NCBI GenBank assembly: GCA_951406725.2
Contig: OX597818.1
Span: 146,568,001 to 146,632,000, forward strand
DNA length: 64,000 nt
Direction of reading: 5' to 3'
Source: Octopus vulgaris
Lineage: Eukaryota
Shown: positions 4,510 through 62,738 of the stretch, in pieces
Position numbering within the stretch: the stretch's first letter is position 1
Layout: the number at the start of each line of letters is the position of its first letter
Notes under the pieces: generated by a model
Seen by the model: the letters and a program-made list of their open reading frames with translations, nothing else
What the model was told of the DNA's origin: nothing
The model's database searches: none
Position numbers and translations under genes: made by a program

Positions 4510-5792
4510 CGAGGGACGTTCAATAAGTAATGCCTCTGACCCACTTGCAGTTGTTTGATCTAGCTGAAATTTTGCATGTGCAATTATTTATATCTCTATA
4601 GATTAAGTGGCAAATTACAGCTCTGAACTAATTGTAGTTCTGATTTACAAGTGTTTGAACTAAGTCAAGTGTGAAATGGAGCCTGTTGAGTGTCGAGCAG
4701 TGATCTGGTTTTTGTATTTGAAAGGGCGCACACCATGGGGGACTTTTGATGAAATGAAAGTAACTTATGGTGATGATGCCCCATCATATGACCTTGTAAA
4801 ACGCTGGCATCGTGAATTCAAACATGGTCGGAACTCTGTGGAAACAACTCCCAGATCTGGTCGCCCCTTCTGCCATTGATGAGGCATCTGTCCGTCAAGT
4901 TGAGGCTGCCATTTTGGAAGATCAACGCATAACTATTCGCCAAATAGCCCATGAGGTCAAGATTAGTACCGGGTCTGTGGAAACTATCATTCATGACCAT
5001 TTGCATATGCAAAAGGTGTCTGCCAGATGGATTCCCCCGTTGTTCACACCTTTCCAGAAGCGTCGAGTGCTGGAGGATGAATTTGGAGATGTGCCAAGAA
5101 GATGAGTCAAAATTTTTCAGAAGACTGATTACACAGGATAAAACCTGGGTCCATCACTATGATCCAGAGACCAAACCCCAGTCAATTCAGTGGAAGCACC
5201 GTGACTCACCTCCTCCAAAGAAGGCAAGGGTGCAGCCCTCCGCTGGCAAGGTCATGCTCACAGTCTTCTGGGACCAGGACGGAGTAGTGATGACAGATTT
5301 CCTGGCAAAGGGTACCACGATTACAGGAGCCTATTATGCTTCACTTTTGAAGAAATTAAGAGAAGCTATCAAAATCAAGAGGCGGGGCAAGATCAGCAAA
5401 GGCATCCTCCTCCTGCAGGACAACGCTCCGGTCCACAACTCGCGTTTCGCCAGATCAGAAACACAGGCGTGCCGCTATGAACTCCTCTCCCATATGAACT
5501 ACTCTCCTGACCTTGCACCTTCTGCTTTTCACCTCTTCCCAGCCATGAAGTTGTTTTTGTAAGGAAAGCGTTTCCCTATATGATGCAGCCTTGATCTCTG
5601 AAGTCACGTCGTGGTTGAAGGACCAAACTGGGGTCTTCTACAAAAACGGTCTCCAGAGCTGCGTCAAACGATGGGAGAAATGCGTAACTCTGGGTGGTTC
5701 CTATGTATAAAAAGACTAATAACTGTGCCAAGTTTCGTTGCTCTACTGCTATGGGAAGTGGCTCAGGGGCATTACTTATTGAACGCCCCTCG
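4510..5792 (+). mobile_element. Full-length mariner DNA transposon (DD34D, irritans-like)
   Basis: 30-bp TIRs CGAGGGACGTTCAATAAGTAATGCCTCTGA / TCAGGGGCATTACTTATTGAACGCCCCTCG (28/30 match), TA target duplication at 4508-4509 and 5793-5794, length 1283 bp. Confidence 0.95.
4676..5719 (+). pseudogene. Mariner transposase pseudogene (frameshifts, stop, third catalytic D changed to A)
   Basis: Spliced across ORFs 4676, 4812 and 4951: RAVIWFL..., RSGRP, KVSARWIP, TQDKTWVHHYDPETK, KVMLTVFWD, LLQDNAPVH, YSPDLAPSAFHLF (normally YSPDLAPSDF), KRWEKCV. Confidence 0.93.
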
Positions 5793-5889: not shown

Positions 5890-6470
5890 CTTAGATAAAC
5901 TTAGATGTTTCGACCACAGATTGGTCCAGGCCATGTCTAACTTAATAGCACCACCTGATAGGATTATCTAAATCTTGTTTAAGTCAAGTTTTGTTTATGG
6001 TCCATTCAAGTAGTGAGCTTTTGTTGGGTGAGTTGTATCCAATTATGGGTGGCTTATCTGGTATTCCTTGAAGGAATCTATCCAGACTCCGTTTAAAGTT
6101 GATGGGATCCTTTTCCTCTTTGATCTCTTTCGGGACAATGTTAAATAGGGCAGGGCCTGTTGAGGAAAAGAAATTATGTTGCAGTGTACATGTATGCTGT
6201 GATCTTGAATTGGGCAGGGGACGTATGGCCCGTGGTCCCAGTCTAGGATGAACCTTGAAGCTAACGTTCACGGCGACGCTGGAGAGAGTAGAGTTTCAAG
6301 GCTTTAAGGCGGTCCCAATAATCGAGAGCAGCCATGCCTTCAATTCGTTTAGTGAGTGCCCTCTGGGGTGATTCAATCCTCGAGATGTTTTGTCTTGTAT
6401 GGGGAGACCACAGTGGGCAGCAGTATTCGAGGTGTGGCCGTACAAAGGAGGAGAAAAGTGGTATGATGAC
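5886..6470 (-). mobile_element. 5'-truncated CR1-clade LINE (ORF2 C-terminus, 3' UTR, short-repeat tail)
   Basis: FVRPHLEYCCPLWSP...IESPQRALTKRIEG...YWDRLKALKLYSLQRRRER and FNIVPKEI...FKRSLDRFL are typical CR1 C-terminal motifs. The 3' end carries (ATCTAAGTTT)2. Confidence 0.85.
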
Positions 6471-6595
6471 ACCTTGTATATATATATATATACACAGAAA
6501 CAAATGAATAATAATATATGAGTGTACAGATACTAATCCCTTACCGCCGTTTCTACCATGTGGCTACAAAAGCTTATTACTATATATATATACAC

Positions 6596-10272: not shown

Positions 10273-11309
10273 TATGTGTATGTGTGAGTGTGTGTGTGCG
10301 TGTGTGTAATTGTATGTATGTATATATATATATGTATTTGTATATATATATATATATATATATATACTCTGTTCCTTAACGCTTGTTGGTATATATATAT
10401 ATACACTTTTACATATGTATATATACATATATATACGAGCGCGCGCGCACACACACACACAAACACGCACACAAACACGTACACATACGCGTGCGCGCAT
10501 GCACACACACACATAACCACACAAAGACGCATACACATATAAGGCAGAATAGCAGAATCGTTAGAGCGTTAGGTGGAATATTTTTTACATTTTTACCAAC
10601 ATTCTGGAAGCTTATTTGAAATCCCTCTGAGATCAACTTTGCCTTGCATTCTTTCGATATGAGGACGGTGGATTTCTGGAACTATGAAAGAGTCTAACGA
10701 CATACCTGGCCGCATCCCTACCGGCCTTTCGCTTTTCTTAGTCTATGATATGCAAATATTTATGTATATATGTTTGAGAACTTGTATTACAAAACTGCAT
10801 GATATATGTTGCTGATGGATGAATAGAGAGAAATAAAAAGGGATAACAGTTAAATGTTTTAAACGACACCTGCAGCTCTTGTAGCAATCAGCATTGTTGC
10901 TATAGATACAGCATGCTGCAATGCAGCCATCTTTAAATGCTTTGTCACCGAGGCAGCAGGTGCTGGACTTAATTTGACTTTTGTGTTGTTGTTGTTGTCA
11001 CTGTTGTTCTACTTCTACTACTTTGGTGGTGGTTGTGGTGGTGGTTTTTTTTTGTTTTGTTTTTTGCCTTTTCAATGCAATTTCAGCAAAAAGACTTATG
11101 ATCAGAGGCTTTCAGCTGGAGCATTCCAATATACTAATTTCCTTTTCAGGACATTAGGGTACGATTTAAGAGAAATTTGGCTGCTACAATAGAATAGTTT
11201 CACTGAGAAGGTAGACACTCTCATGCTTGTTTATTGTTGGTGTTGTTGGATTCTTTTTTATTTATTGTTGCTATTTCGGCTCAGGTCAACACAGATCAAG
11301 TAGTTTCTA

Positions 11310-11440
11310 TTCTATTCTAGGCAGAAGGCCCGAAAATTTGGGGAAGGGGCCAGTCGATTAGATCGACCCCAGTACGCAACTGATACTTAATTTACCGACC
11401 GCGAAAGATGAAAGGCAAACTCGAACTCGGCGGAATAAGT
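11310..11440 (-). mobile_element. Family A SINE fragment
   Basis: GATCGACCCCAGTACGCAACTGATACTTAATTT...GATGAAAGGCAAA. Confidence 0.7.
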
Positions 11441-11700
11441 GGTTTTATAATGACCTTTCCAACCGTAATCGTACCGTCTTTTTAAAGGTACTGGGACAGA
11501 GTCTTAGAGAGTCATACGGAATACCTTTTTAAGGTTTGAGTTCAAAACCCACCGAGTCCATGCCTTTCATCCATACGAGATTTCATTCGTCTGTTTGAAT
11601 TCGGAAATACTGGGTTTTAGATGTATGTTGTCTGACGACGCTTGGTCAGATAAGTATGTTTAATTTTTACATTTGCTCTCAAATTTAAAATCTTGAATTT

Positions 11701-11782
11701 CTGTACTGAAGAGGAGAATGATGGAGTGGAAATGTGGTTTTTATATTTTTCACATCTATCTAACTCCGAAACGCGTCTACAG
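11701..11782 (+). ncRNA. Type I hammerhead ribozyme (intact core)
   Basis: Stem I CTGTA/TACAG. Core CTGAAGA (11706-11712). Stem II GGAG/CTCC with a long extended hairpin. GAAA (11768-11771). Palindromic stem III A-CGCG-T. GUC cleavage triplet, cut after 11777. Confidence 0.85.
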
Positions 11783-12098
11783 TTAATCAAATCCGGGTGG
11801 ATTCGTTATTTTTTCTCTTTGGGTTGTTGAGTATTGTTGTTTGGGAGATTTTCTTATGGTAGAGAAATAGCTAGTTTTAACTGCTATTTCTAAATTTCGG
11901 TATGTGGTGAGGCAAATTTTTTGTTGAACACTAATTATAATTATACGCATAATTATAAAAAGTTTTGTGTATGTATTTAAATACATAAGAGATGGCCATA
12001 ATGGGACATCTGATTTACTAGAAAGAGCAGTTAAACTCCAAACCACTAATAGTTGTAATTCTGAAAGGGAAAGAGAAATAAAAACGTTTACCCTTTCT

Positions 12099-12187
12099 TT
12101 TCTGGACTATGCATAGTTTCGGCAATCTTTTGTAAATAAAATAAAATTATTTTAATTTACAATTGGCGTTGCCATCTTCAGCAGGAA
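12099..12187 (-). ncRNA. Type I hammerhead ribozyme (intact core, one extra U after A9)
   Basis: Minus strand reads TTCCTG-CTGAAGA-T-GGCAA...TTGTAAAT...ATTTACAA...TTGCC-GAAA-CTATGCATAG-TC-CAGAAA. Stem III is the 12-nt palindrome ACTATGCATAGT, the triplet is GUC, and stem I has one mismatch. Confidence 0.8.
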
Positions 12188-12372
12188 GCCAAGGCTAACA
12201 TATTGGCACGAGGCGATAAGGACCATGCCTCGAGTCTATATGCTATAACTTTTCAAAATCCACCACGCTCGTGCGATTTTTCAGCAGTATATATAACTGC
12301 CGATTTTATTTCAAAATTAGCCAAAAAATCCTTTTATCATTAATTAATAAATTTTAGGGTAGCAAAAAAAAC

Positions 12373-12553
12373 TCTAGAAAAATTCTCCGCTACCAGTGGT
12401 CTAGCGGGAAGGAAAAAATAGTCAATAGACTATATAATATACATTTAAATACATAAGAGATGGTAGCGGAGAATTTTTCTAGAATTTTTCTCCGCTACCA
12501 TTCTAGCAGAACTAGACGTCTAGTTCTGATGACGTCTAGTTCTGCTAGAATGG
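12373..12553. repeat. Cluster of nested perfect inverted repeats
   Basis: 23-bp IR 12373-12395/12461-12483, 14-bp IR 12460-12473/12488-12501, 23-bp IR 12498-12520/12531-12553, and an internal 22-bp palindrome CAGAACTAGACGTCTAGTTCTG (12507-12528). Confidence 0.9.
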
Positions 12554-12574
12554 ACAGAATACAAACAGGGGACA

Positions 12575-12935
12575 GTCATTAGTCAGAATATTGATGACGT
12601 CCTTTTCTGCTTGACTAGTCACCTAACAAGTACAGACAGGGGGCAGATCTAATGTAGCTATAAGTCGTGATTGGGCAGAATCTGGATGACGTCCCGTTCT
12701 GCTTGACTAACGAAGCGACTGGTCAAAACAGGAAACAAACAAGAGGCAGTTATAATGCAGCGATTGGTCAAAATGATGATGACGTCCCGTTCGGCTTGAC
12801 TAAAGCCACCTAACGAAACGATTGGTCAAAACATTGATGACGTCACGCTGCGCTGGACTGACCACCTAACAGGCATTATAAAACCGAGCACTTCACAAGA
12901 CCCACTAGAACCACCCAGCGAACATCCACCATGGG
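12575..12935 (+). promoter_or_regulatory. Candidate Pol II promoter: 4x [ATT(G/A)G-N12-TGACGTC], TATA box, Kozak ATG
   Basis: ATTAG/ATTGG at 12578, 12670, 12763 and 12821, each separated by exactly 12 nt from TGACGTC (12595, 12687, 12780, 12838; the last is a full TGACGTCA CRE). TATAAAA at 12877-12883 and CCACCATGG with the ATG at 12931. Confidence 0.6.
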
Positions 12936-13211
12936 TCACCACAATTGCTTAAGGTAAAAATGAATTCCTCGCTCTTTCGGAAACATCAATCTTCTGTATT
13001 GACTGCTTTCCACCACTTTGATCTGTTTTTTGTATTGAATACGTATCGCCACCGTGGGCCACTGCATCGAACACTTTGAACATATAGCATGAATGAACTT
13101 ACTTCAAACTATATATCAACTATACATGAACTCTAAGATGTCTGACTCCGTTGTGTATTATAAATGAATTTCTTGTGTTTGACGGCATGAGCTGTCTTTT
13201 TTTATATATAA

Positions 13212-13257
13212 CTTTTTTTGATAAGGTTCATTTCAGGAACTGAAACATGTTATAATG
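13212..13257 (+). ncRNA. Hammerhead-like motif with U3-A8 core variant (weak stem I)
   Basis: TTGATAA-GGTTC-ATTTCAG-GAACT-GAAA-CATG-TT. Stem II pairs and stem III ACATGT is palindromic. Stem I (CTTTTT/ATAATG) has two mismatches. Confidence 0.45.
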
Positions 13258-14621
13258 TATATATAAAAATTAAAAATTGTATAATATAGCAGCATTTTCG
13301 AACTTCATTTTTTACAAATATAAACCTACTCGTATACGAGCTAATCCTATTATAAATATATATATATATTTACATATATATATATACACACACATACATA
13401 TATACATATATACATATATAGGTAATTATGCAGTTGAATAAATTAAATGTAACCGCTTTGGTTTGATATACAAAACGAGAGAAAGCAAAGACGGAAATCT
13501 TTCACACGATGAACATTTAGGTGTAAATATATAGCTGTTTATATTAATAGATCAAACTGATATTTAATTTGTTTATCCGCATAATTGCCTCCATACCTCC
13601 TCTACTTGTTGCCTCTTATAATGGCCACTTTTTTTCCTATACTCCGCAGAATTAGTCCCCCGTAAACACATCGGAGTCTAAGTTTGAGTAATTTGACCGC
13701 TAGTAAGTGTTTTCTATTTTGAGAATCTCTGTTGACTAGAAATACATATATGTAAAGTAATCAACATAAACGTAGAGGCTAATTTTCAATCATAAAAGTA
13801 AGAACAAATTAACTTTTACAAGTCAAGTGTATTCATGATTACCCTACTACCGACATTGAGCGCTCTTATCCTCAAATTACGTATAATTGTATCCAACCAA
13901 TATGAAAATATATTACACTCCAACTGGATGTTTCCCAGGAGAATCAATATATAATTCATTTGTAAATTGTCCATATTCTTGCACTTAATTCCCATATCAA
14001 ATCGTATCGAGGAGTGTGTTACATTGCTATATTGGATGTTAATGCTAGGTGGGTGTCGAATGACATTCAATATCATTTTTTTAATATACTTTGATCATTT
14101 ATTAGTATGTGTGTGTCTCTGTGTGTGTGTATACGGGTTGATGATATATACAATACGCAATGTTTCCCAGATCCGTTTATTAAACTGTACCGCGTTATTC
14201 GCTTGATAGTTTAGTATAATGTCATGTGTCATTCCATGGTGACCTCCCCTTTTTACTACCATGAGTACAAATCTCTCGTTAGAAAGAAAATTCTCCATTA
14301 TTTAATGGAACATTATTATTGATGAATACTGAAAGGTTTTGTTGTTTTTGTCTTCACACTTCTTTCCACCTTTCAGGGTACTGAAACTTTATTAAAGGAA
14401 ATAAATTATTTTAGACGATTTTGATTTATTACTTTATAATGTTCGGAAATTTCCCAGTACACACCGATAGGAGTGGCTGCAGGAACTCATTCAAAATGTC
14501 GTGGCTGAATGTTATGCATTCTTGAGAGACACGAGTCACATCTGGGACACTTAACGCAGCTGGAATTAATTCTATAATGAACCGATTGAATTAATATTCG
14601 TTAGTGTTATTATTCTTTAAA

Positions 14622-22112: not shown

Positions 22113-24330
22113 GAGGGGGACAATAGAAAGACAGACATAAAGTGTGGTGGTTTATATATAATGGAATGGTAAAATAAAAACTATACACGGTTTACATTAG
22201 AAGGGAAGTATACATAGTATATGACGCTAGAACAAGAGGAAAAAAGGTGGTCGCGTTGGGAACCCGTTGATTCAGGAGGACCTCTGGGGATAATCAAAGA
22301 ACCCCACCATCCATGATCACCCTGAGACCCAAGGAGGAACAGTGCTCACTCCAACGTTTTTCTTCCGACTCACAGGTCTATACTGAGAGTGGTACCATTC
22401 ACTCTTACCATTTTTGCGACTTTCACCCAGTTTTCATAAATTCACTCAAGGACATCACCACCCTCACTCTCCTTTACAAGTGAAACTTGAAAAGGTTGAT
22501 GAGGGTTTTACCAAAGAGGAAAGTTCCTGTCCTCGTTCCTTTGAGTCTCGTCCGCCAGATAACCCCTTTGGCCACAGCCACCAAACAAAGGAAAACTGCC
22601 TTACCAACCCGATTGGACTCGGACGACAGCAGCTGTTCGAAATAACTCCACAAGTCAGCTATGCCCGGACTCTTAAAGAGTGCATGCAGGACGGTTTCGT
22701 GGCTCTGCGAGCACCACTGACAAGCCTGTTTGATAGTACATTCGTGCCTGTACATTCGTGCCAACCCTCTCTACGATGTATCGCATAAGGTGGAGGTTGT
22801 CGTCGATAGACCTGCTCGGAATTGCGCACATCTGTGCTTCCCCGACCAGACAACCAACGACAAGCACCATCCTCTTCGCTAGCACCTTGGCCAAAATCTT
22901 GAACTTAGCAGAGTTATGGGACGAAAATTCCCTAGCACATCTCCATTGTCAGCGTCCTTTCGCAGCAGTGTTACTACACTCCAGCTAACAGCACTATGAA
23001 TTTTCACGTTCTGCTACCAGTTACTGTAGTCATCTGCCAAGAGCCTGCCAAACAAATCTGGCATGAAAACATAGAGTTCATAGGACACACAATCCAAACC
23101 TGGCGATTTACGACTTGAGTATTTCAGAAGCTGTAATCAGCTTTTCGCAGAATCTCACGTCCGTCATCGAGAGCCGTGGTACGCAGTAAAGTTCGTTACT
23201 TTCATCGACCCATCGATTTACCCAAACAGTCGTGCAAAGTGCTGCTGGAAAGCTGCAAACGTCTGCTCAGAACCGAACAGCATGCATCCCTCCCGATCTG
23301 TCAAAGATTTGATCGTGGTTCTGTTTCTACATCGCGTCACTACCGTTCGGGCCCATCAGACGGCTTTAGTTCCTTCGTGTTTTAACTCACGGACCTTAGC
23401 TCTGACAGCACACACTTCGTGCATCGCCTCAAAGAAATGGTCAAGGACCATTACTGCCGCTAACACATCGGTTGCGATGCCTTTACTAATAGCCTCTTCA
23501 AGTTTGATAGCTAGTTCTCCCTCTAATCTATTTCTTTCTCCTGTTAAATCTTTGCTAAATGCTATCGATTCTACTTTAATCGCTCTCTCCAGAACGACCC
23601 GCCACCGTTTGTTGACAACAGCCCCTGTCAACTTCCGTTTAACTTGTTCGCTAATCCGGTCCCTGCAGTCTTTGCGAGCTAGTAAGGATGCATTCAACTT
23701 CTAGTTACCAGATCCCTGTCTACGGGTCCTATCTAAATCGACTGAGCGTATCACAAATTTGTTTATCTCTGTAGCTGCCCAATTTAAAATGTGGATAACC
23801 TATGTTATCTCTATCCTCTGCCCTACCAAATACTCTATCTAAATATGATTTAGATAACCCACTGTGGTTACTCTGTGTCCACACTGGACCGTCAGGGAAA
23901 TCCAGTGGGTACCTGCCAGAAAGCTGGGAAGTTCTGAGCAGATTTTCGAAGTTTTTACACCCACTTCAACTATGTACCTAACCCGCACAGGAAGTTGACA
24001 GCAGACCGACTATCTGACCATTGGAACACTCCCTTCCACAGAAAAATAAACGGCATATGCTCCAATCTAATGAAGCAGTAACTGGAACAAGGCACAACGG
24101 TCAGGCGATAAATAGTGACAGAAATACTATTCCAGTCCCGCCTTAGTACAAAAGTGCAAGACGTGCCCAGGAATGTTTCATGATACCTGAAGAAGTCTGG
24201 CCTTCCAGCCCCTGTTGGAGCATAAACCGTCACCAGTTTAAAGGTGCCACCTTCGCTGTTGTTCTAGTCCAGGACTACCACCCTACCTTCCGGGACCAGG
24301 AAGATAGTTCGTACTTGGAAATCTATTAGC
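22112..24330 (-). mobile_element. Decayed, internally deleted and rearranged Tx1/L1-clade LINE
   Basis: EN: IFLVPEGRVVVLD, VYAPTGAGRPDFF, DWNS, SYLDRV, KLNASLL. RT: KSPGLD, NFRPITL, ILAKVLAKRM...EAQMCAIPSRSIDDNLHLMR. C-terminal zinc knuckle CQWCSQSHETVLHALF. The 3' UTR ends at the (TTC)n tract. Confidence 0.85.
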
Positions 24331-28754: not shown

Positions 28755-28827
<73 letters not shown>

Positions 28828-28936
28828 ACATTATATAAAAGGGCTTAGTAAAATAAATTACTTTGCCGCATACTGAACTCATTAGAAATAGCAGCTAAAA
28901 AAATTTTTTAGAACTATCTCCAATACTTAAAGAAAA

Positions 28937-28974
<38 letters not shown>

Positions 28975-29001
28975 AAATCAAAAACAGAACACAAAGGATG
29001 T

Positions 29002-29094
29002 CGCGGTACACGTGTTTCAAGCTTAATAAACGACCTGTTCTTACATCAGTGTATAATAGATATAAAAGATGGTTTAAAGTTCTCTTCAGCCGCA
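29002..29094 (-). ncRNA. Type I hammerhead ribozyme with a very long stem II/loop II
   Basis: Minus strand reads TGCGG-CTGAAGA-GAACTTTAA-(45 nt)-TTAAGCTT-GAAA-CACGTG-TA-CCGCG. Stem III ACACGTGT is palindromic and the triplet is GUA. Confidence 0.75.
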
Positions 29095-54187: not shown

Positions 54188-54739
54188 TGTATGATTTGCC
54201 TAATAGTGGTTTTATCTCTAATTTAATATAATATATATATATATATATAAAGATTGATAGATACATACATACATACATAGGAGAGAGAGACATATGTATG
54301 TTTGTAGGTAGGTAGTTAGGTAGGTAGGTAGATTAGGTAGATAAGTTGGCAGATAAGTTGGTAGATAGGTAAGTAGGTAGGTATCGGGAGGCTAAAATGC
54401 CATCTCCCACAGAATTTTTTTTTTTACCTTTCTAAGTATCCAATATTCATAGTAGCCAATATCCATAGTAAAGACAGGAAAGCTGGTGGGTCCCTGCCTC
54501 GGTACCTGAGCAGCGATGCCTTCTATAGGAAGAGTAACAAGTCGAAGGTACCCATTGGTGACCTCACCGGGAAGGTGTTGCAATACAAAGAATCCTGCGA
54601 TCCCAAATTCCCTCAGGCAGGCGTTAAGTTCAGAACCTGGCGGAAGTGGAGAGTAGAGGATGTCGAATCTACAGAAGGCCATCCAACTTTCTGCTGGGAA
54701 AATTTGAAGTCCCCAGTTAGCCCCTGTGCTGGAGATTAT

Positions 54740-54975
54740 GATTGGTTGGTTCTCATTCCTCCAAAAGGACCATAGGGCCGGTTTCTCAGTTCCTCTCTGG
54801 ACGGGACACCGGTCCGTTGCAGGATTACTCATTTTTAGCAGCTGAATGAATTGCAGCAACGGGAAAAGAAGTGTTTTTGCTCAAGAGCACAGTGCATCGC
54901 CTGGTCCAGGGTTCGAAACCACAATCTACCGATCCTGAGTCCGACGCCCTAACCACTAATGTATGTGCCTCCACG
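54740..54975 (-). mobile_element. tRNA-derived SINE (family C-like)
   Basis: Minus-strand head TTAGTGGTTAGGGCGTCGGACTCAGGATCGGTAGATTGTGGTTTCGAACCC. Confidence 0.7.
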
Positions 54976-58060: not shown

Positions 58061-58543
58061 GTCATTTACTTTTAATCTGCATGTTTGATACAATCACCTG
58101 CCGGGGCACACCCAGCGCCCTAGGGCAAGTGAAGGTTAAGAGTTGTTGAAATATAGCTGAAAGCTTGGGGAGGGGAAGTAGAGAAATATCTCCATGTAAT
58201 ACAAACACAAACATTTACATTGATAGGGTTTTTCTAAGGATGTGGGCAGTACTTGTTAGCACAATCTTTTGGATTTCCTTGAGACATGGTTTTCCAGGGA
58301 TATTGTCTAGGTGTTTCTGACATCCCTTTTTTATCATACCTAGGGCACCTACAATAACAGGAACAGTTTTTGTTTTAAGATTCCACATCCTCTGTATTTC
58401 GATTTCCAGGTCCTTATATTTACTAAGTTTGTCAAATTCCTTGACAGATACATTTTTATCAGTGGGGACGCTTACTTCTATTAGTCTGCAGGTATTTTCT
58501 TCCCTGTCTTTAACAATTATGTCTGGTCGATTAGCCTTGATCG

Positions 58544-58544
<1 letters not shown>
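58061..58544 (-). mobile_element. 5'-truncated Dong/R4-like LINE inserted within (TAA)n
   Basis: Uninterrupted frame 58544-58215 with no ATG, so absent from the track: SIKANRPDIIVKDREENTCRLIEVSVPTDKNVSVKEFDKLSKYKDLEIEIQRMWNLKTKTVPVIVGALGMIKKG...TAHILRKTLSM*. (TTA)n lies on both sides. Confidence 0.9.
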
Positions 58545-59574: not shown

Positions 59575-60930
59575 CTAAACACATTTAAAATAGTTTGTAC
59601 AATATAGAACACTCTCACATTTTTCATTAAGTAATTTCTTCTTAGATGTTAATATCTGATATAATTCCTCTACACAAAAGTTGCATCGAGCATCATTAAT
59701 TATTGTACGCTAAAGCATAACTAAGTATTTTCAAATTTATGTCGTATAATTTCTTACTATCCTTCAATTTCCAAATTAGTTTACCCAGACTAGTACTATT
59801 AAACCTATCTCTATTCCGAAAGATGTACTCATGGTTTGCGATCCATTTATTAACAAAATTTTCCGTTACCTCCATGTAAAAATAATTTTTCCCTTCCGAA
59901 TCAACCCTATATCTATATGTAATATTGTTCTGTAAACAAAAATTAGTAAAATATTTATCCTTATATCTACAATCACAATTTCTAGCTAGATCATTCTCTG
60001 TAATAGTATTATTATTTCTATTATTGTAAAAGTTGTCTAATCTTTTATTATTAAAGGAAGGGATAATTCTAAACGAATTTTTAGATACTGAAAAACCTAT
60101 TTTAATCCTTTTATTGTTAATTATTTTATTATATTTATGTTCTTTATTAAAGTGCTTAGATATAGATCTGTAAATAAGCTTGACCAAATTTGTTTTTATT
60201 TGTCGTGCGTAAGGAATGATAAACCAAATATAATTATCTTTATTATAATTGACATCATTAGCTTATCTGGGTTGGCATATGGCATGTACTTATTATCCTT
60301 AGACTTAAATCTATTTATATATCTAGTTACTACACTTGTTCTTATTAATATTATTACTATTGTTAATCATATCATTACTACTTACGAATGAACTGATTAC
60401 ATTTCCACTATTAGATCCATTCACTTCGTTGTGAACCAATTTCCATTATAATAATAATATTTATTGCCGTCCCCATTCTTATTACAATATGCTACTCTAT
60501 TCCGGTATCCTGCCTTTTTAAGGGCATCATTATAATATTCCGCATTATTATTAACGATTTTCTCATCAGAGGATACATAAGAAACACGACTCGAAATATT
60601 AGTAACCAAAGATCTTGTGATCGCTTTAGAATGGTTACTATGAAAGTTCATATATTTTAAATTATTGTTGGGTTAATGATACGAACTGTATAGGCCAGTA
60701 ACAATGTTCAGATTAAAATCCAAGTAATTAACTGAATCATGTTCATTTTCTATAAACCAAATCTTTTTTTTTTTTAATTATGGAATTGTTTCATATATAG
60801 GTTTCTTTTTCTGTTGTATTGACTATTAATCAAAAATAGTGCCTCATCTCTACATAGTCAACCTTTAATGTCTGAAAATTCATTATGGAAATAATATAGT
60901 ATGTATATATCTACTAAGTTAGTAACCTGG
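59575..60930 (-). mobile_element. 5'-truncated Penelope-like element, Neptune-like (RT C-terminus + GIY-YIG endonuclease), pseudogenised
   Basis: LCRDEAL (decayed YRDDGL), YMNFHSNH...SS.E...YYNDALKKAGY, KHFNKEHKYNKIINNKRIKIGFS, NCDCR...CLQNNITY...YMEVTENF...NH...F...STSLGKLIWKLKD. Confidence 0.85.
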
Positions 60931-61055
60931 AGTTTTTAATGATTTTTTATGTTATATTATATTCATAGTACATTACGTTATATTATAATATAAATAAATT
61001 ATTGGATTGTCAATTGAATCTCTCTATTTAATTTATTGTTTATATCTATAGGAAT

Positions 61056-61119
61056 ATTCCTCTGATGAGACGAATGGGACCCTTAATAGGTTCCTAACGT
61101 CGAAATTGCAATAGGGAAT
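61056..61119 (+). ncRNA. Type I hammerhead ribozyme (intact)
   Basis: ATTCCT-CTGATGA-GACG-(GGGACC..GGTTCC hairpin)-CGTC-GAAA-TTGCAA-TA-GGGAAT. Stem III ATTGCAAT is palindromic and the triplet is AUA. Confidence 0.85.
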
Positions 61120-61604
61120 TAACCATTTATTTTTAAGTTGTGGATTCTATATGTCATGTCGCCCGCAGACCGCTTTTTCCTGAGGAGAAATAATATGAGT
61201 GATAATAGTAGCTTTATAGTGGTTTTGACTTCTATTTGTAAATATGCAAGGGTTTTTTGAAACCCTCTTAATTATAACTGTGAATTGTTCATAATTATAA
61301 ACATTCTTCTGTGTATTTTACGATAACTTGTTTGGCTATTGATATATTCATAACTAATTATTAATTGTTTATGATATATCCTCCGTAGTGCATTATTGCA
61401 TTACTTTTTAATTATTTAATTTTCCCAACTAGTATCTGGTGGTTTGCAGTGACTCGAATATACCATCTTTTCTCATAAAGGCCGTGCATGACATTTGAAT
61501 TCAAAACTTAAATGTGTAGATAGAGGTTGACACATCATTCTAGCCAGTCGGGATTCCTGTAATCCCCAAGGTAAGGTCTTGTATTGATTTCTATCTATAG
61601 GAAT

Positions 61605-61668
61605 ATTCCCCTGATGAAACGAATGGGACCCTTAATAGGTTTCTAACGTCGAAATGGCAATCGGAAAT
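61605..61668 (+). ncRNA. Second hammerhead copy, partly degenerate
   Basis: ATTCCC-CTGATGA-AACG...CGTC-GAAA-TGGCAA-TC-GGAAAT. The stem II closing pair, stem III and stem I each carry one mismatch. Confidence 0.65.
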
Positions 61669-62738
61669 TAACCTTTTATTTTTAAGTTGTTGATTCTATG
61701 TCATGTCGACCGCAGACAGCTTTTATCGTGAGGAGAAATAATATGAATGATAATAGTGGCTTTATAGCGGTTTTGACTGCTATTTATGAACATGTAAGGG
61801 TTTTTAAAACCCTCTTAGTTATAATTGTGACTTGTTCATAATTATAAACATACTTCTATATATTTTATGATAATATGTTTGGTCATTAATATATTCATAA
61901 ATAATTATTAATTGTTTATGATATATCATCCATAATGTATTATTGCATTACTTTTTAATTATATATATATATATATCCTACACATTCAAGAGGGATGAGG
62001 ATGTATCATGGCCGCTATTCAGTTTGTATTAAACTGGTTAAACTGACAATGTATGGAGCGAACAATTGGCTTGGTTCCCTGTTAGACATGGTTGCAGTCA
62101 AAACGGAAGTTGATCGTAGTTTTGTGATGCCCTACCCTTAACTACTCACTCTTGTATGGGTAGATTCATCTTGTTTGTTTTACTGAATTTTAAATATGTT
62201 ATATTATACTGTATTGCATTTTTCTACTTCTCTCATTCAACGTTTTAGCTTCATTTACGTTTTTTTAAATTTTCAAGTAATTTCTCTATTTTTATCTTCA
62301 CTTATCAACTCTTATATGATACAATTTATTATCTAAAATGCTTTTCACCGACGTGGAAGCGAAATTTCCGAATAGCTGCCAGCAGGTTGAGAAGAAATAA
62401 ATACTGAGATTAAATTAAATCATAAGTTTAGATAAAACAATGCAAAGTTTTGCATTTTTCGTAGAACAGAAAACAGAACAGAACAAGGTTTTTCTACCTT
62501 AAAAGAATGAAAAAAGAAATCAGCCAATAAGAGAGTAATTTACATTACATAGAAAATTCTTCGCAAAAAGAAAAAAATCTGTCAGATATGATGACTACCG
62601 GTTATGTGTACGTTCTTCGAAGTTGGTAGTCGTAAATATTCAACACCGAGATGTACGAGATTGAGATAACAAAACAATACTCATACGCACGCAGTTCAAG
62701 CTTCGGCAGGACATATTCTCAAATTGGAATATTGGTAC

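Follow-up and report, generated by a model that had tools for sequence, protein, structure and literature searches.

The window analysed here, i.e. 64,000 nucleotides of Octopus vulgaris DNA from contig OX597818.1 with its first letter as position 1, is AT-rich animal DNA, rich in microsatellites and in a repeated tRNA-type short interspersed nuclear element (SINE). Between 11583 and 13349, the stretch under study carries three hammerhead ribozyme motifs, a block of hairpins and a set of promoter motifs, which the original prediction had combined into a single non-autonomous element. It is made up of three separate multi-copy pieces of differing divergence and not of one unit. Piece A (11583-11974, plus strand) is an old multi-copy repeat, likely the 3' end of a Hydra-clade-like Penelope-like element (PLE), namely a stub of its pseudo-long terminal repeat (pLTR); piece B (11975-12463, minus strand) is another old multi-copy repeat, likely a pLTR or retrozyme-like stub; and piece C (about 12527 to 13322 or 13349, plus strand) is a young and abundant multi-copy repeat. 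Apart from short motifs, none of the three pieces recurs within the window. A scan for open reading frames (ORFs) found no long one in the stretch, whether for a reverse transcriptase (RT), a transposase or another protein, in agreement with the original prediction, which had seen no enzyme ORF there. Coleoid genomes are rich in Penelope families (PMC8967140).

Three multi-copy pieces and their hammerhead motifs

Relatives of the stretch were taken from contigs of public sequencing runs, part of it being present in 20 of the 24 listed runs (four organism labels, nine studies). The share of its words per run ranged from 0.26 to 0.59, attaining at least half in only one run; the 19 other holding runs had under half of the words, about piece C's share. 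The contigs of four runs were aligned to 11100-13345; the 31 listed are the longest of about 50,650, a length bias favouring diverged copies, with 29 of the 31 lying inside the repeat, and 15 of a total of 34 contig joints are shown. No holding run listed is recorded as RNA; two of the four aligned are guessed to be RNA and are uninformative on transcription, starts, ends and strand. Divergence is given as letters differing from the listed contigs, gaps excluded, and the summed contig depth is not equivalent to copy number.

Contigs of the unique left flank have a depth of 60-77 in run X1, compared with a summed depth of 3,000-290,000 from about 11583 on; being far above single-copy, the latter indicates that the stretch is clearly multi-copy. 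The multi-copy contigs of A start at 11583 or 11588, and a single-copy contig spans 11407-11606. Divergence amounts to 10.6% for piece A (180 of 1691 letters; 10 listed contigs), 10.9% for piece B (161 of 1471; nine listed contigs) and 3.0% for piece C (62 of 2084), or, when only the two putative RNA runs are counted, 7.3% (19 of 261), 7.7% (38 of 496) and 2.6% (50 of 1900), respectively. Neither the A/B junction (11958-11975) nor the B/C junction (12463-12527) is bridged by any of the 31 listed contigs, and six listed contig pieces stop or start at the junctions (11946, 11975, 12463 and twice 12527, with a loose end at 11957). Besides, one C contig carries 49 other letters ahead of 12527, and the depth of the bin 12450-12524 is 9%, 22%, 2% and 12% of that at 12558 in the four runs. 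Piece B itself corresponds to one monomer of about 470-490 nt plus 21-26 nt of the following monomer, and elsewhere it occurs in head-to-tail tandem, as three X1 contigs return from 12440-12449 to 11972-11992.

Regarding the ribozymes, a strict type I hammerhead descriptor was applied to the 64-kb window and to 60 dinucleotide shuffles. Canonical type I motifs were retrieved at 11706 (plus), 12181 (minus) and 61062 (plus), together with a U3-A8 core at 13218 (plus), i.e. three and one for shuffle expectations per window of 0 and 0.017, respectively. The three hammerheads originally described are thereby confirmed at their places, including the third motif, and their assignment to the type I kind of PLEs and retrozymes was right, palindromic helix III and U3-A8 cores being known from PLEs. 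Hammerhead A (11701-11782, plus strand) has a canonical core (11706-12), a long loop 2, stem I at 11701-05/11778-82 and a cut after C11777; its helix III is a 6-nt palindrome (11771-76), predicted to be of the dimer type. Hammerhead B (12099-12187, minus strand) has a canonical core from 12181, a cut after 12105, a 12-nt palindromic helix III and a short stem I with only 3 perfect pairs. Hammerhead C (13199-13270, plus strand; core region 13218-13251) is a type I variant in which U3 and A8 replace C3 and G8 as a compensated pair (core 13218-24), with a 5-bp stem II, a 6-nt palindromic helix III, a U (U17) at the cut site 13251 and an imperfect stem I with two U.U mismatches.

The double hammerhead is the best homodimer fold for both A and B. 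For C, the active dimer reaches -17.2 kcal/mol versus -30.8 kcal/mol for the best fold and, because of this gap of 13.6 kcal/mol, hammerhead C is a weak candidate. With a 6-nt palindrome as helix III, A and C are predicted to require a second copy for cleavage; the earlier expectation that both transcripts of the stretch end by self-cleavage is doubtful on these grounds. In Rfam, no match was obtained at the gathering score and no hammerhead occurred among the 13 matches at E<=5, the miRNA matches corresponding to TA repeats and to the hairpins.

Hammerhead stubs are common here, with about six sites in 64 kb. That three of these six fall inside 1.56 kb has a P of 0.03 under random placement, a mild excess, as would follow from shared targeting of TA sequence. 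This excess nevertheless counts in favour of the original prediction, i.e. a recurrent non-autonomous element built around a hairpin core, whose divergent promoters would give two self-cleaving transcripts, as do the multi-copy nature of the entire stretch, the summed depth of the hairpin bin at about 100 times single-copy in X1 and the bidirectional TATA already proposed for pLTRs (PMC3846280). Such an element with common boundaries is nonetheless very unlikely considering the unequal divergence of the pieces, the lack of a bridging contig among the 31 listed, the different letters upstream of other C copies and the tandem of B with itself; moreover, A is directed towards B and lacks its own promoter, and the hairpin-bin depth can arise from cross-mapping of the inverted arms. 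The other possibility raised at the time, an accumulation of pLTR fragments, agrees better with the data, albeit not by chance alone, since the pieces share a TA target and B and C meet via fold-back arms.

From their sequence, pieces A and B resemble the ends of PLEs. A conserved motif located 97 nt past A's cut site (11874-11889, plus strand) is common to B and to three other hammerhead stubs, its distance past the cut being +97 in A, +69 in B, and +109, +108 and +106 in the stubs at 61.1, 61.6 and 29.0 kb, respectively; it is not found in piece C. The alignment of piece A with the 61.1-kb stub scores higher than any of 100 shuffles (z 4.9), and a multiple alignment of the five stubs, at 46% identity, is uninformative. 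From the cut site to the 3' end of the piece, about 197 nt are counted in A and about 130 nt in B, where an AT-rich or (TA)n target adjoins. The tail-to-tail A/B junction (11970-11995) comprises an 18-nt palindrome and a 26-nt direct repeat of 12438-12463 (24/26). The 21-26-nt direct repeat flanking B was discarded as a target-site duplication because the tandem joints reach 39 letters into B, and no duplication is recognisable in the TA-rich flanks. A possible TATA box of B, TATATATA, was indeed present at 12288-12295 as first reported, but it constitutes weak evidence in a TA-rich genome. Regarding piece B, a contig with a depth of 203 in X1 skips 254 nt, hammerhead included (joint 12048>12303), and right after the hammerhead (12064-12094, minus strand) lies a GT..AG stretch that includes a pyrimidine tract but, at about 31 nt, is too short to be a usual intron. 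On the left of piece A, a plus-strand SINE fragment (11529-11580) adjoins it and a very high-copy SINE occupies 11305-11436 (minus strand) and many other places, with a summed depth above 4 million and more than 10 copies in the window.

The stubs at 61 kb belong to a decayed PLE (59600-61950), in which a broken ORF on the minus strand (59.6-61.0 kb, RT-thumb and GIY-YIG-like) stands head-to-head with tandem hammerhead stubs (about 61030-61390 and 61590-61950, plus strand) ending in (TA)n. The nearest protein-atlas clusters of this ORF (0.94-0.96) have GIY-YIG in 18-27% of their members, and its motif order fits by eye the Hydra-clade consensus ORFs (supplement of Craig et al., 2021; PMC8557442). 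Searches of the 59.7-kb ORF gave no Pfam family and no word-based homologues or loci, so that the GIY-YIG assignment comes only from atlas features. The stub at 28780-29093 (minus strand) has its hammerhead core at 29089, an 8-nt palindromic helix III and an imperfect stem II, and also ends in (TA)n.

Hairpins at the junction of pieces B and C

Two inverted repeats occupy the B/C junction, namely 12373-95/12461-83 (23/23 paired, 65 nt apart) and 12498-520/12531-553 (23/23 paired, 10-nt loop), the latter having the longest perfect arm of the whole window once simple repeats are set aside. The 23-bp palindromes of the original prediction are thus perfect, yet adjacent with a 3-nt overlap and not nested. 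The DNA fold of the hairpin block reaches -55 kcal/mol (z -12.6), a value attained by none of 200 shuffles. At B's 5' end, the fold-back arm (12461-12500) begins with 12461-83, the exact reverse complement of 12373-95, and continues with 12489-500, the reverse complement of 12461-72, the arm being joined via 3-nt microhomologies. At C's 5' end, the 23-bp perfect hairpin (12498-12553) pivots on the self-complementary GACGTC. The arms of B and C overlap by 3 nt, with no target DNA between them. The hairpins are best read as fold-back scars at a head-to-head junction of B and C and, if both pieces are reverse transcripts, both cDNA 3' ends would lie there. Besides, a parvovirus-like or phage origin of the hairpins is unsupported, as exact-motif scans of viral, metagenome and prokaryote contigs gave 0 matching stretches, and Helitron or miniature inverted-repeat transposable element termini were dismissed with no defining ends seen and the hairpins being internal.

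Since the two heads are of different families without target DNA between, and since deleting 11975-13349 in silico leaves a continuous TG/TA microsatellite after A, B and C could have been inserted in one event, whereby a dimeric PLE protein would have primed on both nicked strands with templates of families B and C, the cDNA ends being joined head-to-head. The meeting of both fold-back arms with a 3-nt overlap agrees with this scenario; the PLE protein of Anolis, which was modelled as a dimer, both cuts and extends the two strands (PMC11167929), and a head-to-head palindromic junction is the commonest PLE arrangement (PMC3846280). A twin insertion is all the same unlikely, as B is about 3.5 times more diverged than C from the listed relatives, which would make its template an old copy, the published inverted pLTRs are same-family copies in the excerpts of that latter paper, and a later deletion accounts equally for the clean joint.

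Promoter motifs, predicted intron and frame of piece C

Along piece C, modules, TATA, Kozak ATG, splice donor, U-rich tract, hammerhead, 71 nt, an extra 27 nt and (TA)n follow one another. The predicted RNA polymerase II (Pol II) promoter (12578-12883, plus strand) comprises four tandem ATTGG-17 nt-TGACGTC modules and TATAAAA (12877). ATTGG occupies 12670, 12763 and 12821 and, as a variant, 12578, with TGACGTC following 17 nt later in each case; the full cAMP response element (CRE) is present only at 12838, and the TGACGTC sites of 12530-12838 represent five of the seven in the window. The number of modules differs between C copies (joints 12708>12804, 12801>12631 and 12844>12810). The four CCAAT(-like)/CRE modules, TATAAAA and Kozak ATG originally listed are all present but, being tandem copies of one unit, the four modules count once as evidence and not as four independent occurrences.

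Downstream, CCACCATGG at 12926 occurs nowhere else in the window, and the Kozak ATG (12931) opens a predicted short first coding exon (12926-12953, plus strand) ending at a 7-of-9 splice donor. A 272-nt intron (12954-13225, plus strand) is predicted from sequence only; the first AG past the U-tract (13224-25) corresponds to hammerhead positions A9 and G10.1 and, as an acceptor, would bring the ATG into frame with a 42-codon frame from 13227. The alternative acceptor AG at 13235-36 fits the consensus better but leads to an immediate stop. The 42-codon frame (13227-13355, plus strand), possibly a PLE ORF start, contains one stop (13287-89), in which T>C at 13287 accounts for 47% of the depth in X1 and 57% in X6, and is seen in one contig each of X11 and X19; the frame is hence open in many relatives. 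By chance, a stop-free run of 32 codons has a P of 0.034 and one with at most one stop a P of 0.16. The single representative-protein match to this frame (P0002, E 9e-5) was set aside as a tandem-repeat artefact summed over six stretches.

At its 3' end, C may carry an optional PLE tail of 27 nt (13323-13349, plus strand), two contigs of other copies leaving the window at 13322 (the optional tails of PLE pLTRs measure 30-40 nt), and a 12-nt palindrome (13329-13340) is observed in this extension. The cut site of hammerhead C lies 71-98 nt from the end of the piece, beyond which an imperfect (TA)n/(CA)n microsatellite (13350-13420) is the likely insertion target. By eye, 13314-13322 are the same nine letters as the end of Hydra-1_Obim, although such AT-rich letters could match by chance.

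Piece C might otherwise be another young repeat, i.e. a solo long terminal repeat (LTR) or a non-coding retrozyme-like unit with its own Pol II promoter and an RNA of about 345 nt ending at the hammerhead. An upstream CCAAT/CRE array of varying module number is LTR-like; protein and representative searches found no homologue, no splicing appears among the joints shown and a frame with at most one stop in 32 codons has a P of 0.16. This origin of C is nonetheless rather improbable: type I hammerheads combining a U3-A8 core and a palindromic helix III are characteristic of PLEs (PMC4209133), C stops at (TA)n with a short extension that varies, its nine end letters match those of Hydra-1_Obim, contigs cross the cut site and the active fold is weak.

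Of note, C's first module (12524-12553) resembles the first half of a hammerhead (core and TCTAG stem-loop) without GAAA, and the CRE motif overlaps this hammerhead-like core, which suggests that the promoter modules may derive from a hammerhead fragment. A similar stem-loop occurs at 1723-1747 (region about 1705-1747), and stem II of Hydra-1_Obim shows one on visual inspection. As for the CRE modules being decayed hammerheads, this was not retained as they are without GAAA.

Origin of the stretch and comparison with known systems

Considering the above, the stretch probably corresponds to three 5'-truncated PLE pLTR stubs inserted successively in one TA-rich site. A PLE protein would nick AT-rich DNA and reverse-transcribe from the 3' tail of the RNA, the synthesis stopping early; the free cDNA ends would then fold back on self-complementary words of 3-6 nt (12393-95 for B, GACGTC for C) and copy 23 nt, before microhomology sealing leaves the hairpins. 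A and B would be old and C the last to arrive. The module array, TATA and Kozak ATG of C would act as a pLTR promoter driving the next copy in tandem and, as the 272-nt intron would end inside the hammerhead, the spliced RNA would lose the catalytic core and read into the ORF, the unspliced RNA keeping this core. At this locus, C's ORF is cut after about 40 codons, so that the locus is likely dead.

Several observations weigh against this successive insertion of PLE stubs. The contigs listed are the longest only and favour diverged copies; in X1, the depth of the hairpin bin remains about 100 times that of single-copy DNA, even if cross-mapping of inverted arms may explain it; and variable sites within C show dips in depth as well (3,950 at 12899), so that the hairpin dip is not proof of a boundary. 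Between B and C, neither a TA remnant nor a target-site duplication was found, which is not what sequential insertion would predict. None of the three pieces has a linked RT or endonuclease ORF at the locus, and piece A does not align significantly with the 61.6-kb stub (z 2.7). As C has neither the motif of A and B nor any resemblance to the other stubs, it is assigned to PLEs by its layout; its 42-codon frame is without homologue among longer proteins, Pfam and representative proteins. No spliced joint was seen among the 15 of 34 shown, and two contigs from the runs guessed to be RNA are continuous across donor, acceptor and cut site. Besides, the Penelope promoter of Drosophila virilis is, in the excerpt concerned, internal and TATA-less, unlike that of C (PMC2377424).

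A bolder combination would have C as a young and abundant PLE end with an LTR-like promoter and an acceptor in the U3-A8 core, splicing switching the ribozyme off in the mRNA and leaving it on in the transposition template, together with a mixed-family twin insertion of B and C by one dimeric PLE enzyme, but its probability is low. If true, an acceptor and a catalytic core sharing nucleotides would make C a splice-controlled ribozyme switch, directly testable, and a mixed-family head-to-head joint would bear on the origin of inverted pLTRs, i.e. self-priming vs. twin priming. As ordinary PLE debris, the composite illustrates that a stack of pLTR stubs can take on the look of a designed element. 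On the best reading, A, B and C are additional families of a known type of PLE end, with piece C a worthwhile lead, at a time when the roles of hammerheads and retained introns in PLEs are still open in the excerpted literature (PMC4209133; PMC11167929).

Elsewhere in the window, a mariner-type transposase remnant lies at 4800-5562 (plus strand; Pfam PF01359, E 2e-24), and broken frames at 5984-6563, 22387-24263, 54392-54880 and 58215-58544 (all on the minus strand) resemble by eye the RT or ORF1 of long interspersed nuclear elements, with no Pfam match at E 0.05.

Solo pLTR stubs are by definition without an RT/GIY-YIG ORF. The features of PLE pLTRs encountered here are a short palindromic helix III, a hammerhead about 50-200 nt from the 3' end beside AT-rich or (TA)n sequence, partial tandems (B) and head-to-head copies with junction palindromes, the inverted partner being another family. 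In endonuclease-containing (EN+) PLEs, pLTRs with hammerheads of the minimal/dimer type exhibit opposite-strand hammerhead pairs 100-700 bp apart as well as U3-A8 cores; like A, B and C, these type I motifs have a palindromic helix III and are mostly solo, but A and B differ by an extended stem-loop II of about 45 nt and all three pieces by the lack of a linked ORF at the locus (Cervera and de la Pena, 2014; PMC4209133). In D. virilis Penelope, an intron ends at hammerhead helix I, comparable to the predicted intron of C ending at the hammerhead, except that C's predicted acceptor is inside the core (A9/G10.1) (PMC4209133).

Among the Hydra-clade PLEs, the sense hammerhead is located 50-200 nt from the 3' end with a (TA)n target, and U is found at the cut site in 10 of 26 rows (Craig et al., 2021; PMC8557442). 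The stretch shares the hammerhead near the 3' end, the (TA)n target and, in C, the U at the cut site, and the 59.6-62 kb element of the window has this look. A, B and C are not Hydra-1_Obim of Octopus bimaculoides, whose hammerhead and 3' end differ and whose hammerhead, unlike what is predicted for C, does not overlap the ORF start (PMC8557442). The exact motifs of A and C are absent from the consensus file of that paper, where line breaks could hide a match. In Poseidon of Anolis carolinensis, the hammerhead lies over the ORF start, the copies end about 111-118 nt into the ORF, the target is AT-rich, no RNA ends at the cut site and insertion is independent of cleavage (Frangieh et al., 2024; PMC11167929). 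C is similar in having its hammerhead at the predicted ORF start, the element end 70-120 nt further and an AT-rich target; the Poseidon core is canonical C3-G8, unlike C's, and the excerpt reports no upstream CCAAT/CRE array (PMC11167929).

Regarding retrozymes, the non-LTR ones of animals are non-coding, pLTR-derived type I units, which recalls B's family in head-to-tail tandem, but they are recognised by at least two consecutive hammerhead units in the excerpts concerned and each hammerhead is single at the locus (PMC7229834; bioRxiv 10.64898/2026.07.22.740005). A plant LTR retrozyme, with type III hammerheads in paired LTRs, was excluded as all three motifs are of type I and no paired repeats exist. 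The Terminon/Athena elements, i.e. PLEs without endonuclease (EN-), combine telomeric repeats beside the hammerhead, a giant multi-ORF body and a position at a chromosome end; here, no telomeric array is found in 11.0-14.2 kb, no ORFs are present and the position is internal.

In Adineta vaga, Penelope has palindromes of 18 and 38 bp at pLTR 5' junctions, read as self-priming, as well as TATATATA boxes, and the pLTR together with its tail holds the first 12-22 ORF codons (Arkhipova et al., 2013; PMC3846280). Head-to-head pLTRs, junction palindromes, TATATATA, microhomology joins and solo pLTRs are common to these units and to the stretch; the inverted pLTR is there of the same family and 180-220 bp long, in contrast to the two unrelated heads here and to C, which exceeds 800 bp and has an enhancer-like array (PMC3846280). 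Opposite-strand pairs, U3-A8 cores, TATATATA and 5' palindromes are each already in print for PLEs. In the literature searched, neither the families of A, B and C nor an acceptor within a hammerhead core were found described, and Repbase or Dfam may hold these families. The joining of mixed-family heads without target DNA between them is non-standard for described PLEs.

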